A stretch of DNA of 64,000 nucleotides from Clostridia bacterium. Lineage in GTDB: Bacteria; Bacillota; Clostridia; Oscillospirales; CAG-272. The translations under genes and the position numbers were made by a program. Shown here piece by piece: positions 2,843 to 62,960 of the stretch. Under the pieces are notes generated by a model. It was given only the letters and a program-made list of their open reading frames with translations. It ran no database searches and had not been told where the DNA came from. Location of the stretch: assembly GCA_017513325.1 (NCBI GenBank), contig JAFXGC010000182.1, positions 17,106-81,105 of the forward strand. Direction: 5' to 3'. Position 1 is the first letter of the stretch, and the number at the start of each line of letters is the position of its first letter.

Positions 2843-5266
2843 TTAACCCTTGATAAGTCTCTCGATATTCCAGATGCGGTCAGCATATTCCTTAATGCTT
2901 CTGTCAGCGGCAAACTTGCCTGCACCTGCACTATTATAAAGAGATCTCTTGTTCCATTCCTTCTGGTCTGCATATACGCGGGCAACTTCCTGCTGAGCCT
3001 TTCTGTAGGACTCAAAGTCTGCCATGCACATGAAGGGATCGGAGTGGAGCAGATATTCAGCGATGTGTGAGAAGGACTCGCCGTTATATCCTGCGCTGAG
3101 GCTGTTAACAACCTGCTGGAGCACCTGGTTCTCGTGATAGTACTTGGAGCTCTTATAGTCCATTGCATAAACGTACTGAGCTTCTTCTGCTGTGAGACCG
3201 AATGTGAACATATTTGCATCTCCTGCCTGTTCCTTCATCTCAATATTAGCACCGTCAAGAGTACCGATTGTGAGGGCACCGTTGATCATAAGCTTCATAC
3301 AGCCTGTACCGCTTGCTTCCTTACCTGCAAGAGAGATCTGCTCGGAAAGTTCTGCTGCGGGAACGAGAGCTTCTGCCATTGTTACGCAATAGTTCTCAAT
3401 GAATACAACGCGGAGTTTTTCGCTGATTTTCTTATCTTTCGCGATCTCCTGGCTCAGGCACCAAATAAGCTTGATGATCTCCTTAGCCATATGATATCCG
3501 GGAGCAGCCTTTGCACCGAAAATGAATGTTCTGGGCTGGATATCGAGATCGGGGTTTTCCTTGAGCATCTGATACATATGAATGATATTCATAGCATTCA
3601 TAAGCTGACGCTTATATTCGTGAAGACGCTTGATCTGAACGTCGAAGAGAGAATCTGTGTTGAGAACAACACCTGTCTTTTCCTTCATAAGCTTAGCAAA
3701 CTTCACCTTATTCTGAGCCTTGATCTTGCCCAGCTTCTCAAGAACTGCATCGTCATTGGCAAAATTGCGAAGGCCTGCAAGCACTGTGGGATCCTTCTTG
3801 AATCCGTCGCCAACACAATCTGTGATGAGCTTGGAAAGAGCGGGGTTGGAATAGCACAGCCATCTGCGGTGAGCGATACCGTTTGTTACGTTATCGAACT
3901 TTTCGGGCCAGAGGCGATAGAAATTCTTGAATGTGATATCGCGGAGAATACCGGAGTGGATCTCAGAAACGCCGTTTACGTGGTGAGAACCGATGATTGC
4001 AAGGTTAGCCATATGAACCTGGCCGTTTGAAACAACTGCCATTTCAGCAATTCTGTCCCAGTTGCCGGGGAACTTTTCCCAGATCTCGTGGCAGAAACGC
4101 TCGTTGATCTCTTTGATGATCATATAAAGTCTGGGCAGACGGAGACGGAAGATCTCTTCGCCCCACTTTTCAAGTGCTTCGGGAAGAACTGTATGGTTTG
4201 TATAGGAGCATGTGCGGCAAACGATATCCCATGCTGTATCCCAATCCATGCAATATTCATCAAGAAGGATACGCATAAGTTCGGGAACGCACATTGCAGG
4301 GTGTGTATCATTGATATGGATAGCAACCTTATCGGGAAGTGTTTCGATGTTGCCGTATACTGCCATATGGTCACGGATGATGCTCTGGCAGGATGCTGAT
4401 ACCATAAAGTACTGCTGTGTGAGACGGAGAACCTTACCGTCATAGTTATTATCAGCAGGATAAAGAAGCTTACAGATAATATCAGCAGCAAGAGACTTCT
4501 GCGCAACGTTATCGTTGTATCCGCCTGTATAGTCGCCGATAGCGAGGCGCTCGGGAGCTGCTGCTCTTGCCTTCCAAAGACGAAGCTGGGAAACTGCCTC
4601 AGAATCAGCGCCGCTCATCATCATATCATAAGGAACTGCTTCGATTGTTTCGCAGTTATCGTATGCAATAACGTGTCTGCCTTCGTCCCAGAGTTCTCTT
4701 ACCTGGCCGCCAAAGCGTACCTTATAAACTCTGTCCTCACGGGGTGTGAGCCAGATGCCGCCGCCGGGGAGCCAGTTATCGGGAAGCTCAACCTGGTGGC
4801 CATCTATGATTCTCTGCTTAAAGAGACCGTATTCATAGCAAAGGGAGAAACCTGTTGCGGGATAATCGAGAGAAGAAAGGGAGTCGATAAAGCAAGCTGC
4901 AAGGCGGCCGAGACCACCGTTACCAAGACCTGCATCGGGTTCGCAATCATAAAGATCGTCCAGCTTGTGGCCCATAGAAGAGATAGCCTTCTTATAAGTG
5001 TCATCAAGACCAAGGTTACAAAGGTTATTCTTGAGGCTGCGGCCTACAAGATATTCCATACACATATAATATACGCGCTTTGCGCCTTCTTCATTAACCT
5101 TTTTCTTAAATTCCTGACGCTTCGCTGAGAGAATATCGCGAACTGTGAGAGCTGCTGCTTTATACATCTGCTCCTTGGATGCTTCTTCAGGTGTGCATCC
5201 AAAATATCTGGAAAGTTTAGATTCAATGTTAGCCTTTACTTCGGCTGTATTAGGGGTATAATTCAT
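2843..5266 (-). CDS. glgP: glycogen/maltodextrin phosphorylase (GT35)
   Basis: 807-aa ORF. It has the PLP-site motif EASGTGCMKLMINGALTIGTLDGANIEM and the length typical of alpha-glucan phosphorylases. Confidence 0.95.
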   Translation of the reverse strand: MNYTPNTAEVKANIESKLSRYFGCTPEEASKEQMYKAAALTVRDILSAKRQEFKKKVNEEGAKRVYYMCMEYLVGRSLKNNLCNLGLDDTYKKAISSMGHKLDDLYDCEPDAGLGNGGLGRLAACFIDSLSSLDYPATGFSLCYEYGLFKQRIIDGHQVELPDNWLPGGGIWLTPREDRVYKVRFGGQVRELWDEGRHVIAYDNCETIEAVPYDMMMSGADSEAVSQLRLWKARAAAPERLAIGDYTGGYNDNVAQKSLAADIICKLLYPADNNYDGKVLRLTQQYFMVSASCQSIIRDHMAVYGNIETLPDKVAIHINDTHPAMCVPELMRILLDEYCMDWDTAWDIVCRTCSYTNHTVLPEALEKWGEEIFRLRLPRLYMIIKEINERFCHEIWEKFPGNWDRIAEMAVVSNGQVHMANLAIIGSHHVNGVSEIHSGILRDITFKNFYRLWPEKFDNVTNGIAHRRWLCYSNPALSKLITDCVGDGFKKDPTVLAGLRNFANDDAVLEKLGKIKAQNKVKFAKLMKEKTGVVLNTDSLFDVQIKRLHEYKRQLMNAMNIIHMYQMLKENPDLDIQPRTFIFGAKAAPGYHMAKEIIKLIWCLSQEIAKDKKISEKLRVVFIENYCVTMAEALVPAAELSEQISLAGKEASGTGCMKLMINGALTIGTLDGANIEMKEQAGDANMFTFGLTAEEAQYVYAMDYKSSKYYHENQVLQQVVNSLSAGYNGESFSHIAEYLLHSDPFMCMADFESYRKAQQEVARVYADQKEWNKRSLYNSAGAGKFAADRSIKEYADRIWNIERLIKG

Positions 5267-6927: not shown

Positions 6928-8067
6928 TCAGATCATTTTGCCTTTTGCAACATAAAAAGGCTGAGTTTCGTGACCGGAAAGGTTCACGTCATCTCTGATT
7001 GTTACGTTCTTATCTGTGATAACACAGTTAAGCTGAACGTTTTCTCCTGTGCAGGAGTCCTGCATCATAACGGAGTTCTTAACAACTGTGCCCTTGCGAA
7101 CTCTTACGCCGCGGAAGAGAACGGAGTTGATAACTGTTCCTTCGATAACACAGCCGTCAGCGATAACGGAATTCTTAACAACAGCGCCTTCAGCATACTT
7201 TGTGGGAGCTGTGTTACGAACCTTTGTATATACGGGGCGATCCTTTGTGTTGAAGAGCTCGTTACGAACGTCAGCACGGAGGATCTCCATATTAGCTGTG
7301 AAATACTTGGGAAGGCTGCCGATTTCTGCGTAGTAACCGTCGAAATCGAATGTCACATACTTGGAGGAAGCCATTGCAGCTGCGAGAGCCTGTGTATAGA
7401 AGTCCTTATAACCATAGGAAACTGATGTGTGAAGAGTGCTTACGAGGAAGCCTGTGTTGATAACAACGATGTTTGTGCAAACGTTGAATTCGCCCTTTGT
7501 CATGGGAGAGCAGTCAACGATCTCTGTTACGTTGCCTTCAGCATCAGCATTGATGATTGTATGGGAGCCTGCTTTACCGCCGTCAAGGTTCATCTTCTTT
7601 GTTACGAATGTAACGTCAGCGCCCTTTGCTTCGTGATAATCAAGAACTGCGCTAAGGTCGATGTTGCAGATATCGTCACAGTCAGAAAGAACTACAACTT
7701 CTTCATCGCAGTGGTTGATAAAGTCGATAGCGCCCAGCATTGCTTCAAGTCTGTTTGTATAGAGCTTGCCGCCGATGGGGCTGTCAGAGGAACTTACGTA
7801 GGGAGGGAGGATTCTGATACCGCCGCTTCTTCTTGCAAGGTCCCAGTCCTTACCGTTTCCGATATGGTCCATAAGAGAACGATAATTATTATGAGTGATA
7901 ATTCCAACTTTGTCAATACCCGAATTAACCATATTTGACAAAGTAAAGTCCACTAATCTGTATCTTCCGCCGAAAGGAATGGACGCCATTGTGCGTTCAG
8001 CTGTCATTTCGGGGATGCTTATATCATGAATATTAGAGAAAATAAGTCCTGCAGCAGTCATAATCAC
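6928..8067 (-). CDS. glgD: glucose-1-phosphate adenylyltransferase subunit GlgD
   Basis: 379-aa paralog of the upstream GlgC that lacks the GGxGxRL motif. It overlaps the glgC stop by 4 nt, the usual Firmicute glgC-glgD arrangement. Confidence 0.85.
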
Positions 8068-30494: not shown

Positions 30495-30712
30495 CTTTTT
30501 TCCTGCAGTGTTTCGTGATAGGGTTGCTAATTGAACCCACAGTTGATTAATGGAGTGAACACTCCGCGTAGGAATGCAGGCCTCCCGACCGCCTCTCTTT
30601 TGACAGACGAATCGGACGTTGGAAGCACAAAGCGCGGACGACGCACACCACCTTGCATGAGCAGGGTTTCACATTGTGACTTTACACGGCACTGCGGGAT
30701 CTTTTCTTTTTT
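30495..30712 (+). ncRNA. ssrS: probable 6S RNA (SsrS)
   Basis: An ORF-free ~215-nt stretch. A closing stem pairs CCUGCAGUG (30502-30510) with CACUGCGGG (30690-30698) and is followed by a U tract. Internal segments CUCCGCGUAGG and GGACGACGCACACCACCUUG...AGGGUU resemble, from memory, E. coli 6S segments CUCCGCGGUUGG and GACGACACAUUCACCUUG...AGGGUU. Confidence 0.6.
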
Positions 30713-42524: not shown

Positions 42525-42734
42525 ACATTTCCTTATTTCAAGCTGAATTTCACCATTCCCGAAAATCTCATTTCTGCAATTATCCTTATTATTATAACTC
42601 TTATCACCAGCACCCTTACCACAAAAGTGAGAAACTGGGAAAACCTGCGTGTTGAAACAGAAAAGGAGAAAATGCGCGCAAATATATTGACGAAAGACTT
42701 CTTGCAGCTCCCCCCGTTGCTCTCGCTCAGGTAA
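42525..42734 (+). pseudogene. remnant of a DUF4118-type (KdpD-like) sensor histidine kinase
   Basis: An open frame with no start codon translates to TFPYFKLNFTIPENLISAIILIIITLITSTLTTKVRNWENLRVETEKEKMRANIL..., which resembles the last TM segment plus linker just before the H-box. The H-box and ATPase domains are absent. Confidence 0.4.
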
Positions 42735-42746
42735 AAAAGGAACCTC

Positions 42747-42790
42747 GCAGGGAGACACTTCGTAAAGAAATGTCTCCCTGCTTCTTTTTA
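42747..42790 (+). terminator. terminator-like hairpin after the kinase remnant
   Basis: gcagggagaca (42747-42757) pairs with tgtctccctgc (42771-42781), followed by a T-rich run. Confidence 0.55.
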
Positions 42791-42801
42791 TATAAAAATT
42801 A

Positions 42802-43052
42802 ACACTTTCAGAACGAAAGTGTCATAGTGAGTTACATTTTTGAAACACCATCTCAAAAACAAGAATAATAAGTGATATTGTGAGACAGGTCTCACAGTGA
42901 TATTTTACCTATCGGCAAAGTGGTATTGAAACTTGCAGTTTCAGTGATATTATATTCGCATCCAAAACTGTCCGAAGGACAATATCACTGCGTATCAATA
43001 TCACTCGCCGAAGGCGAATATAACTGAGGCACCTCCGTAAGGAAGGTGCCTC
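42802..43052 (+). repeat. phased 9-mer / variable-hairpin array, copy A
   Basis: GTGATAT-type cores start at 42827 (degenerate), 42872, 42897, 42920 (GTGGTAT) and 42944. Reverse-complement cores ATATCAC are at 42982 and 42998, and ATATAAC at 43018. Small perfect hairpins lie between cores, and a closing hairpin with a GUAA loop spans 43026-43052. Confidence 0.85.
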
Positions 43053-43075
43053 CGGGTTCCTTGTTTATTTAAAGA

Positions 43076-51031: not shown

Positions 51032-51233
51032 TGATAATCTATCAAGAGATACTCGGGAGGACCTTTTGAGGAAAGGTCCCTCCCGAACCCTCCCCAAACC
51101 TTTTCGCAGAAAATCATTTTCCACCCCTTTTTATAGGGGTGGGAAAATGATCCTGTGCAAAGAGGTTTTGAGGGGGTCCAGGGGGAACTTTTCCTTAAAA
51201 AGTTCCCCTTGGGGATCCCTTGATAAATTATCA
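51032..51233. repeat. nested-palindrome intergenic element, family 1, copy 3
   Basis: Outer inverted repeat TGATAATCTATCAAGAGAT (51032-51050) against ATCCCTTGATAAATTATCA (51215-51233). The arm hairpins and central hairpin (51114-51150) are homologous to copies 1 and 2. Confidence 0.8.
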
Positions 51234-56401: not shown

Positions 56402-56600
56402 TGTTTGTGACCAAGCCTTTCTTATAGGGGATGTGCTATATATACGCGTATAGAATATTCATCCGATTTTAGAATGAATTTGGATTTATTATACTCGCTT
56501 TTTGCCTTTAAAACAATAAAGCGACCGCAAAAAAACTATTTTTGTAACATCCGTCAAAATATGAACATCTCACTTGGCACAAATAACAAATAAAAAATCC

Positions 56601-56810
56601 GCCGAACGGCGACCTGCGGTAAAGCAGGTCAGCCGAACGATGTTTGCCCTTGCGGGCAAGTGATGTTGCCTGCGCAGTGATGTTTACTGCGTAAGTGATG
56701 TTACGCCTGACGGCGTAGTGGGCAAACATCACATCACCGGCGACCAACGGACGCAGCATCACTATGAGCAAAGCGAATAACATCACTTTTGCGTAAGCAA
56801 AAACATCACT
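56601..56810 (+). repeat. phased 9-mer / variable-hairpin array, copy B (GTGATGT variant)
   Basis: AGTGATGTT at 56659, 56676 and 56694. Its complement AACATCAC(T) is at 56725, 56779 and 56802, plus shorter ATCAC copies. Small hairpins lie between them. An 11-bp long-range complement pairs gatgtttgccc (56639-56649) with gggcaaacatc (56720-56730). Confidence 0.8.
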
Positions 56811-56872
56811 CATTTATTACCCGAACGTAAAATATGGTATACCACACTATACCGTGAATGCAAAATAACGTG

Positions 56873-60003: not shown

Positions 60004-60172
60004 CACCCGGATAGCTCTCCGCAAAAGCGACAGTCGGAGTGATATTATTCACTCAAACCGGTTCAGCCCCGCACCAAAGGCTGCCCTCGGCACCTGCACC
60101 TTTAACTCAGGCAACGGGCGGTCACCCCTTTAACATCTGAGCTACTCATTGCAAAATGCACCTCTACCGTGT
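60004..60172 (-). promoter_or_regulatory. lysine riboswitch (L-box) controlling dapA-dapB-lysA
   Basis: The minus strand reads GGTAGAGGTGC...GAGTAGC...AAAGGGGTGACCGCC...GGTGCCGAGGG...GGGGCTGAAC...ACTGTCGC...GGAGAGCTATCCGGGTG. The order and spelling match conserved L-box segments. Confidence 0.85.
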
Positions 60173-60323
60173 AGCACAAGTATAGCACACCTTCAAAATC
60201 GTGTCAATATATATTTTTTATATGTAGATAATTTAAACGTTTATTTACCAAAACTATTGTAAAAATTATTTTTATGCTTTAAAATAAAATAAATAATACT
60301 GACCGAAAGGAAAGGTAAATTAT

Positions 60324-62748: not shown

Positions 62749-62960
62749 ATAGTGATATTCTTTGCTGCGCAAAGAGTGATATGATTGCCAACGGCAATCG
62801 TGATATTAAAACCTGCGGTTTTAGTGATATTTTATTCGCCTTTTAAAACTCGCAAAGCGAATAACACTCGGCGTTAGCCGAATATCACTGCGTAGCAATA
62901 TCACTCGCCGCAAGGCGAATAAAACTGCCCAAGTGTTCTTAAGGACACTTGGGCAAAATC
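62747..62960 (+). repeat. phased 9-mer / variable-hairpin array, copy C (best-formed copy)
   Basis: GTGATAT starts at 62752, 62776, 62800 and 62824, exactly 24 bp apart. Each 17-nt interval is a different perfect hairpin. Reverse-complement cores are at 62861, 62882, 62898 and 62919. The closing hairpin spans 62926-62955. Confidence 0.9.

Follow-up and report, generated by a model that had tools for sequence, protein, structure and literature searches.

Copy A is a hairpin array at positions 42,802 to 43,052 of a 64,000-nucleotide (nt) stretch of Clostridia bacterium DNA (contig JAFXGC010000182.1 of assembly GCA_017513325.1), referred to here as the window. It belongs to the catalogued family Gut-1 RNA (RF01706) and is not a new class; it is a genuine full-length member of that family, slightly eroded. 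The published Gut-1 model takes in less than half of the element and commits to one strand, and the full element has two arms of opposite orientation. The reading that we favour, with a probability of roughly 40%, is that the element may be a cis-acting single-stranded RNA module at the 3' boundary of transcription units, as sequence comparison suggests.

Weinberg et al. 2010 defined Gut-1 on 43 human-gut metagenome sequences and assigned it no function (PMC2864571). It was reported from gut sequences only and in no sequenced organism, and both Rfam and the 2010 paper class it as a small RNA (sRNA) from covariation (PMC2864571). In the 2010 alignment as published, the second arm and the hairpin upstream are already visible in the flanks, and neither lies within the model. 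The library searched returned no work on Gut-1 later than the 2010 paper, and a search with the heptamer returned unrelated papers.

An earlier note on the window had described copy A as two inverted heptamer arms with hairpin-forming intervals, and most of its anatomy was correct: the hairpins at 42879-42896 and 42927-42943 were found as described, and so were the cores, apart from that at 42827. On the + strand GTGATAT occurs at 42872, 42897 and 42944 and the variant GTGGTAT at 42920, giving left-arm core spacings of 25, 23 and 24 nt. The reverse-complement heptamers are ATATCAC at 42982 and 42998 and ATATAAC at 43018, with right-arm spacings of 16 and 20 nt, and nearly all inter-core intervals are self-complementary. 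The window contains 13 occurrences of the 8-mer AGTGATAT, where 1.44 would be expected; 0 of 100 shuffles reached this count, and 10 of the 13 fall in copies A and C. A 28-nt right-arm pattern built from these two copies, with one position open, matched the window only at copies A and C and without mismatch. The right arm is conserved and the left arm more variable, as the note had stated. Tandem Repeats Finder reported nothing in the copy A region, so copy A is not an ordinary tandem repeat. The array in copy A is real and well beyond chance.

To place copy A in the Gut-1 family, which the earlier note had not recognised, its arms were scored against RF01706, for which the curated gathering threshold is 50 bits. 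The right arm of copy A matched on the − strand at 42959-43026 below that threshold, with 42.5 bits (E 5.3e-7 locally and 5.7e-5 over the whole window), and alignment to the covariance model recovered the features of Gut-1, three hairpins split by the word GUGAWAU. The right arm of copy C matched on the − strand above threshold, at 52.9 bits, and the left arms of copies B and C scored about 34 bits. Matches above threshold in the Rfam polarity were obtained in 15 of the 18 loci tested. An identical RNase Y is encoded on four contigs, whose sources are metagenomes of the ruminant gut and one metagenome-assembled genome labelled 'Clostridia bacterium'; among named relatives Candidatus Avispirillum is nearest, with 87% RNase Y identity. 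Copy A lies at the same site beside the same kinase remnant in all four contigs. Three of these sister contigs carry an extra 20-bp right-arm unit (AATATCAC plus TATGCGCAGCAT, hairpin hp3) that is missing in the window strain. The sister-strain allele with one more unit (L001) scored 60.3 bits, indicating that the copy A locus is a full Rfam member minus one unit in the window strain. A small open reading frame (ORF) through the right arm was rejected, as it has no conserved frame because the strains differ by the 20-bp unit.

To describe the family as a whole, one genome per species was searched with three spaced GTGATAT words. At least 120 loci were listed, a minority of them unrelated simple repeats, and nearly all lie in gut or rumen Clostridia (Oscillospiraceae, Acutalibacteraceae, Ruminococcus, Christensenellaceae, Roseburia and Agathobacter). 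Carriers among assembled genomes also span Lachnospiraceae, with ruminants among the sources. From more than 100 gut and rumen Clostridia genomes we extracted 52 full-length elements; an earlier set held 40 and the alignment set 38. All 52 share one layout with both arms, usually with 4+4 heptamers, and their length is uniform at 172-179 nt, about 175 nt. Where both core orientations are present, the order is always + and then −. In the Rfam orientation a terminator-type hairpin of the upstream gene comes first, and the element starts right behind it at CAGTTATATTCGCC. The 5' consensus after this strong hairpin is CAGTT(A/T/C)TATTCGCC, and hp1 (TCGCC/GGCGA) comes next. The short arm continues with a heptamer, hp2 (TGC-NNN-GCA), a heptamer, hp3, a heptamer and hp4. 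The centre has the consensus GTTnnnn-GGCGAATA(T/A/G)A, complementary to the 5' end, and the long arm reads ATATCAC-hp5, ATATCAC-hp6, ATATCAC-hp7, ATATCAC-T. The arms are not equivalent: ATATCAC is near-invariant in the long-period arm, and GTKNTAT is tolerated in the short-period arm.

Variants of this layout were also seen. In the copy C orthologue L076 an additional hairpin of about 41 nt replaces hp3, and in L117 (1895-2187) a five-unit ATATCAC array is duplicated in tandem. L093 carries three successive hairpin arrays with two different core words at 7480-7800, built on GTGATAT (four times), AAATCATG (four times) and CATGATT (three to four times). Arrays on other core words occur in the same genomes: CGATAT (L038), ATGATAT (L072, with the variant ATGTAAT in L027) and AATCATG. 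Arrays with several core words suggest that the design of a short word with a free hairpin defines a wider superfamily.

To determine if the intervals between cores are selected for pairing, we compared them with shuffled sequences. An end-anchored Watson-Crick stem of at least 4 bp was found in 72% of 126 distinct inter-core intervals from 40 elements, compared to 0.5% of shuffled intervals; the pairing is thus not the chance product of random left-arm intervals that had been named as the outcome that would undo the earlier proposal. In the 38-sequence alignment the seven local hairpins were 94.6% paired, with changes on both sides in 28 of 38 pairs. None of 500 shuffles matched the observed value, and structures slid by 1-3 columns paired at 28-42%. 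Two-sided changes were present in all 20 pairs of hp5-hp7, and hp1-hp4 were 96-99% paired, with compensatory changes in hp1, hp3 and hp4. The left-arm hairpins of copies A and C had been taken as swapped out. They are instead homologous in position (hp5 of TGAAACC type, hp6 of TTTCRC type, and hp7) and diverge by compensatory changes.

RNAalifold predicted that the 5' end pairs with the centre in a long-range helix, P1, which was 97.4% paired across the 38 elements. One P1 position covaries (A-U 17, C-G 10, U-A 10), and whole-segment variants change in step: GATGTTTGCCC/GGGCAAACATC in copy B, GATATGAACC/GGTTCATATC in L119 and TAAATAAATCC/GGATTTATTTA in L100. In copy B, hp1 (TTGCCC/GGGCAA) and the centre (GGGCAAACATC) are altered in step, and in L030 the short arm is reduced to a bare P1 hairpin. 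Since hp1 and P1 need the same 5' strand, they are mutually exclusive alternatives, both of them conserved. We also considered pairing of the heptamers between the arms, as a ladder of four-way junctions, and rejected it: the 88.9% paired equals the shuffle mean. Short-arm core positions 3-4 vary without compensation, with GTTATAT against ATATCAC in L020, L118 and L059.

The inverted heptamer arrays around a centre could also be helically phased double-stranded sites for a dimeric regulator, as the term 'phased 9-mer' in the earlier note implied, or a chance clustering of words. We regard this as highly improbable. Periods range over 16-25 nt and differ systematically between the arms, so that the phase is not retained as had been claimed and no constant helical phase exists. 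The intervals are under selection for self-pairing, and several core words occur in one genome (GTGATGT in copy B, CGATAT, ATGATAT and AATCATG). Chance clustering is excluded by the AGTGATAT shuffles and the 28-nt pattern match.

To ask which strand carries the structure, we examined base pairs and loops. The stems are about 97% Watson-Crick, with 10 G.T and 10 A.C among about 680 pairs; as G.T is as rare as A.C, a G.U-versus-A.C wobble test gives no strand information. The loops are one-sided. On the ATATCAC-sense strand, 173 distinct hairpins from both arms gave 43 GNA loops against 0 TNC and 39 GNNA against 0 TNNC, and hp2 is GC-GNA-GC in most copies. A bias of 82 to 0 indicates that each arm prefers one strand and that the strands of the two arms are opposite. 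The preferred strands run 5' to 3' outward from the centre, and that of the short arm is contrary to the Rfam polarity.

We next examined where the elements lie. In all 27 elements with enough flank, CAGTT is preceded at a distance of 0-6 nt by a hairpin with a predicted folding energy between −16 and −33 kcal/mol, which bears out the claim that the closing hairpin holds a fixed position. Closing hairpins have at least 10 pairs in the folds shown, and about 11 of the 27 have the classic bidirectional terminator form with an A-run and a T-run. Of 26 ORF-based calls, 22 gave an upstream gene in the same direction as the element. In three of the four exceptions (L009, L019 and L024) a co-oriented transfer RNA (tRNA) gene lies directly upstream, and in L075 one lies within about 100 nt. 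Read from coordinates, at least 15 of 59 loci are at most 100 nt downstream of a tRNA gene, and in L050 (2046-2853) the element directly follows a 23S-5S-tRNA-Asn cluster, the end of a ribosomal RNA (rRNA) operon. The element is therefore polar, its hairpin side facing the 3' end of the co-directional upstream gene, which is rny for copy A. The far side is occupied by a convergent terminator or else by the next gene's promoter, which in some cases abuts the last heptamer.

These positions bear on the Rfam classification, by which the element would be a trans-acting sRNA made from the short arm only, on the GUGAUAU-sense strand, with the second arm incidental. Such an RNA might be a protein sponge displaying GUGAWAU between hairpins, as CsrB and RsmZ are multi-hairpin protein sponges with a repeated single-stranded motif. 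The covariation-based assignment by Rfam and Weinberg 2010 and the above-threshold matches on that strand in 15 of 18 loci speak for it. However, the RNA would start just after or inside the terminator hairpin, leaving no room for a promoter after tRNA genes; the loops on that strand are UNC and never GNA; and the heptamer is least conserved in the short arm (GTKNTAT). The second arm is equally conserved, within one architecture in 52 of 52 elements, and the many diverged copies, each kept at its orthologous site, argue for a local role. We therefore consider a trans-acting sRNA unlikely.

Copies within a genome have diverged. Same-genome copies differ in most hairpins (copies A and C in the window; L041 and L060), and near-identical pairs within a genome were found only for L062 and L071. 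Orthologous copies in different species retain their hairpins via compensatory changes (L023/L089/L099; copy C/L007/L082), which indicates long-term selection on each copy rather than recent copying. Signs of movement were seen as well. Copy A is part of a module of about 330 bp (about 42745-43070), made up of the hairpins T1 and H2, the two arms, the closing hairpin and a conserved tail, which recurs in L020, L118 and L059 beside unrelated genes. No element was found downstream of rny in relatives at 94, 91, 87 and 85% RNase Y identity, nor in 80 metagenome loci with RNase Y at 59-72% identity. Gene order also differs at the element-free rny loci, so an exact empty site could not be delimited, and no target duplication was identified either. 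Many of the copies are found at contig ends.

A selfish miniature transposable element in decay that does nothing for the host, its hairpins being relics of transposase-binding ends, would account for the inverted terminal words AGTTATAT ... ATATCACT, for a heptamer repeated subterminally as in the ends of Tn7 or Mu, and for a copy-A module found in different gene contexts beside a truncated kinase gene. Neutral decay would not keep every hairpin by compensatory changes across species and orthologous loci, nor does it fit the loop-strand bias of 82 to 0 or the strict position at terminators in 27 of 27 elements. No duplication accompanies the inverted terminal heptamers, the copies differ in most hairpins, and no autonomous partner was seen among the 140 nearest ORFs. 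We judge this origin improbable.

To search for a partner gene, 1362 flanking ORFs were clustered all against all, and no recurrent partner was found, only housekeeping families. A Pfam scan of the 140 nearest flanking ORFs detected no HUH, transposase, integrase or mobile-element gene; these ORFs gave 182 Pfam families, the commonest being ABC_tran with 5. A plasmid search gave no match to the element. The single match in a phage search was an 'UNVERIFIED' record, and the part that matched appears to be a tRNA-Arg gene with a terminator and the element. Of the 120 viral pattern hits only 3 were real arrays, on two viral contigs; the IMG/VR contig L247 has two ATATCAC arrays with very GC-rich hairpins at 3820-4350. 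ORFs resembling four-helix-bundle or '23S rRNA intervening-sequence' proteins abut the long-period arm in the unrelated loci L015 (6079-6529), L110 (2576-2963) and L330 (from about 1707 on); BAAZ01025322 of the 2010 alignment spans the element of L330.

Collectively, diverged copies kept at orthologous sites and a fixed polarity after terminators point to a local, cis-acting role; a redundant pool of trans-acting RNA would not need retention at each site or a fixed polarity. In the mechanism that we propose, RNA would be the working molecule, possibly as two short divergent transcripts. Each arm would be read outward from the centre, on the strand with the AUAUCAC heptamer and the GNA/GNRA loops. 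The short perfect stems would hold three to four heptamers single-stranded and evenly displayed, as landing sites for a putative sequence-specific binding factor, and the choice between hp1 and P1 would switch the short arm from an open string to a closed, branched form. At the centre, −10-like hexamers are present on both strands: the Rfam strand has TAnAAT in 49 of 52 elements, and its complement has TGnTATTnT in 46 of 52. A −35 match of at least 4 of 6 was seen in 29 of 52. A consensus promoter scan placed a promoter-like site in copy A on the + strand, TTGAAA-16-TGaTATTAT at 42926-42953, and found no good site in copy C; the copy A site is a lead and not a result.

Several points weigh against a cis-acting RNA. 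Transcription of either strand is a prediction, and the heptamer-binding factor is putative. Stems that are about 97% Watson-Crick, with G.T as rare as A.C, are unusual for RNA under selection on a single strand. The dominance of triloops, and an hp2 of GC-GNA-GC, speak for single-stranded DNA, in which d(GCGNAGC) forms a mini-hairpin of exceptional stability. On the Rfam strand the promoter has neither a −35 box nor a TG extension, the U-tract of an outward transcript follows the closing hairpin in only about 11 of 27 elements and is missing in about 60%, and a transcript that began beyond the central −10 and ran outward would be without the P1 strand. In addition, the polarity of copy B is opposite to that of its neighbouring genes and to that of copies A and C.

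The main alternative is a DNA element of the REP/BIME kind, a possible explanation that we rate somewhat below the RNA reading. Here DNA that is single-stranded for a time, for instance as lagging-strand template or as non-template strand, would fold into the hairpins, and a DNA-acting protein would recognise hairpin and heptamer, such as an HUH/Y1 (RAYT-type) nuclease, a topoisomerase or a nucleoid protein, which would spread or maintain the family. Perfect Watson-Crick stems without a wobble bias between strands, the dominance of GNA triloops and an hp2 of GCGNAGC are consistent with this. So are the inverted arrays of word and hairpin outside genes at 3' ends, resembling GTAG + REP, and a unit number that varies between strains. 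The 330-bp copy-A module adjoins different genes in the window, L020 and L118 and is absent downstream of rny in relatives with 85-94% RNase Y identity, and many copies lie at contig ends. TGATAT(T) also resembles HUH nick sites such as CTTG|ATA of phiX174/pC194, a lead only. The orientation bias could reflect replication direction, although this point is weak. When the window was scanned in 15 overlapping 8-kb segments, 13 of them showed a negative GC skew of the + strand; the − strand is thus probably leading, and copies A and C would point in the direction of replication. On the other side, none of the 140 nearest ORFs encodes an HUH protein, transposase or integrase, and copies within a genome are not near-identical, unlike REPIN populations or young miniature inverted-repeat transposable elements. 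No target-site duplication or precise empty site was found, and the plasmid, phage and viral searches gave no match, one unverified record and 3 real arrays among 120 hits, respectively. Stems of 5-7 bp are also too short for extrusion from double-stranded DNA.

Known repeat systems share parts of this design. The short arm aligns to the Gut-1 model end to end, with three hairpins and GUGAWAU, and shares its gut-metagenome habitat; the second arm, the P1/hp1 alternative, the terminator attachment, the tRNA enrichment, the loop bias and the unit polymorphism are not in the Gut-1 description. The REP/BIME/REPIN repeats of Proteobacteria are likewise multicopy, inverted arrays of a word with a short hairpin, extragenic at 3' ends, with variable units, and the extragenic placement at gene 3' ends, convergent gaps included, holds for the present elements. 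They differ in the word (GTAG there, the heptamer ATATCAC/GTKNTAT here) and in the host (Clostridia here). A REP is an imperfect palindrome of 20-40 nt that follows one master sequence in each genome, whereas the hairpins here are 9-18 nt and vary by unit and copy. Gut-1 also has a fixed 4+4 layout with a defined centre and a terminator-joined 5' end. REP genomes have a cognate RAYT (Y1 HUH) gene, typically with the repeats on either side; no such gene was seen among the 140 ORFs nearest to Gut-1 elements. BOX of Streptococcus pneumoniae (boxA-boxB(n)-boxC) is another modular intergenic Gram-positive repeat with variable units and strong predicted structure, but it has no sequence similarity, its modules are conserved stretches of 45-60 bp, and it has no fixed-orientation link to a terminator. 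In manner of working only, Gut-1 is comparable with CsrB/RsmZ and with boxA + boxB of lambda nut, where a single-stranded word stands beside covarying hairpins; lambda boxB has a GNRA-like loop. The Gut-1 word differs from theirs, its arms are of opposite polarity, its partner protein is putative, and its expression is predicted. As in CRISPR arrays, constant words alternate with variable intervals, but the cores are 7 nt rather than 23-50, the intervals are self-complementary and homologous, the arms are inverted, and there is no cas gene or leader.

The local anatomy of copy A is given in Table 1. Its site is a convergent gap, and TGC and TTGC loops recur, both as the earlier note had stated. 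The adjoining sensor-kinase remnant was also correctly recognised: it matched Pfam DUF4118, a domain typical of KdpD-type kinases, with 28.6 bits (cut-off 28.4; E 1.3e-6) over profile positions 65-101 of 107. In the proposed comparison of sister strains, remnant and element occur together in 4 of 4 strains, and no strain with an intact kinase was found. GTGAGTT at 42827, which had been read as a degenerate core, belongs to a separate conserved flank, CATAGTGRGTTACAT, kept as one unit in the tail 45 nt from the first true core. T1 is the outer boundary of the copy-A-type module of about 330 bp and is kept with the array in L020, L118 and L059 despite other flanking genes. Its interior (CTTCCTTACGGAG) is shared with the closing hairpin in L020, and more weakly so in the window (3 mismatches of 13). 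On the − strand the closing hairpin with AGTTATATT reads as a predicted intrinsic terminator, and copy C is alike. The interior of the closing hairpin (43026-43052) is flipped relative to L118 and L020 with the outer stem kept, which looks like an inversion within a palindrome. A GTAAC-flanked hairpin of about 31 nt is present in the equivalent of 42825-42871 in L020 and L118 and not in the window or L059.

Table 1. Features of copy A, its surroundings and the other two copies, in window positions.
Feature	Position	Strand	Remarks
Sensor-kinase membrane-domain remnant ORF	42525..42734	+	neighbour, outside the element; 69 aa, of which 68 aa scanned
T1, GC-rich hairpin	42747..42789		T-tract on + strand; T-run on − strand after about 9 nt
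H2, terminator-like hairpin, then ATTTTTATAT	42800..42824	−	11 pairs; kept in L020, L118, L059, L108 and L114
Conserved tail between array and H2	42825..42871	−	includes GTGAGTT at 42827; from alignment of copy-A relatives
Long-period arm	42872..42950	−	period 23-25 nt; ATATCAC-hairpin repeated on − strand
hp7	42879-42896	−	long-period arm hairpin
hp6	42904-42919	−	imperfect, one A.C mismatch; perfect in related copies
hp5	42927-42943	−	long-period arm hairpin
AT-rich centre	42950..42968		−10-like hexamers on both strands
P1 strand in centre, TTATATTCGC	42950-42959		one half of long-range helix P1
Short-period arm	42969..43024	−	Gut-1 part modelled by Rfam; RF01706 match at 42959-43026
hp4	42969-42981	−	short-arm unit
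Core	42982	−	short-arm unit
hp2	42989-42997	−	short-arm unit, eroded
Core	42998	−	short-arm unit
hp1	43005-43017	−	short-arm end
Other P1 strand, GCGAATATAA	43014-43023		within short-period arm
Terminal core ATATAAC	43018-43024	−	short-arm end
Closing hairpin	43026-43052		27 nt, GC-rich, 11 pairs; AGTTATATTC next on − strand
T-rich tail after closing hairpin	43053-43070		
Copy B	about 56600-56815	+	Rfam orientation on + strand; GTGATGT/ACATCAC in both arms
Copy C	62750-62930		second window copy

Other structured RNAs were detected elsewhere in the window. A 6S RNA gene (RF00013, 54.5 bits) lies at 30497-30704 on the + strand and a lysine riboswitch (RF00168, 70.5 bits) at 60004-60174 on the − strand. 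A weak match to a plant microRNA precursor at 51068-51196 on the − strand (39.9 bits against a threshold of 140) is probably just a long hairpin.

These results add to what is recorded of Gut-1 its full anatomy, the attachment to terminators, the enrichment at tRNA genes, the P1/hp1 alternative, the unit polymorphism and the loop-strand signal, which questions the polarity filed in Rfam. They also place Gut-1, for which the original paper named no organism, in assembled genomes of Clostridia. We suggest, tentatively, that Gut-1 is one half of an undescribed class of two-armed, terminator-attached hairpin-array elements with the arms on opposite strands. If so, this class would be either a divergent pair of hairpin-string RNAs or a single-stranded-DNA structure, a Clostridial counterpart of REP/BIME, and would have its own heptamer-binding protein and flag where strongly transcribed units, tRNA and rRNA operons for example, come to an end. 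Should the DNA-level or the divergent-RNA reading hold, gut Firmicutes would possess an abundant intergenic repeat system comparable to REP/BIME, with a bearing on genome annotation, on assembly breaks in metagenome-assembled genomes and on the insulation of highly expressed operons.

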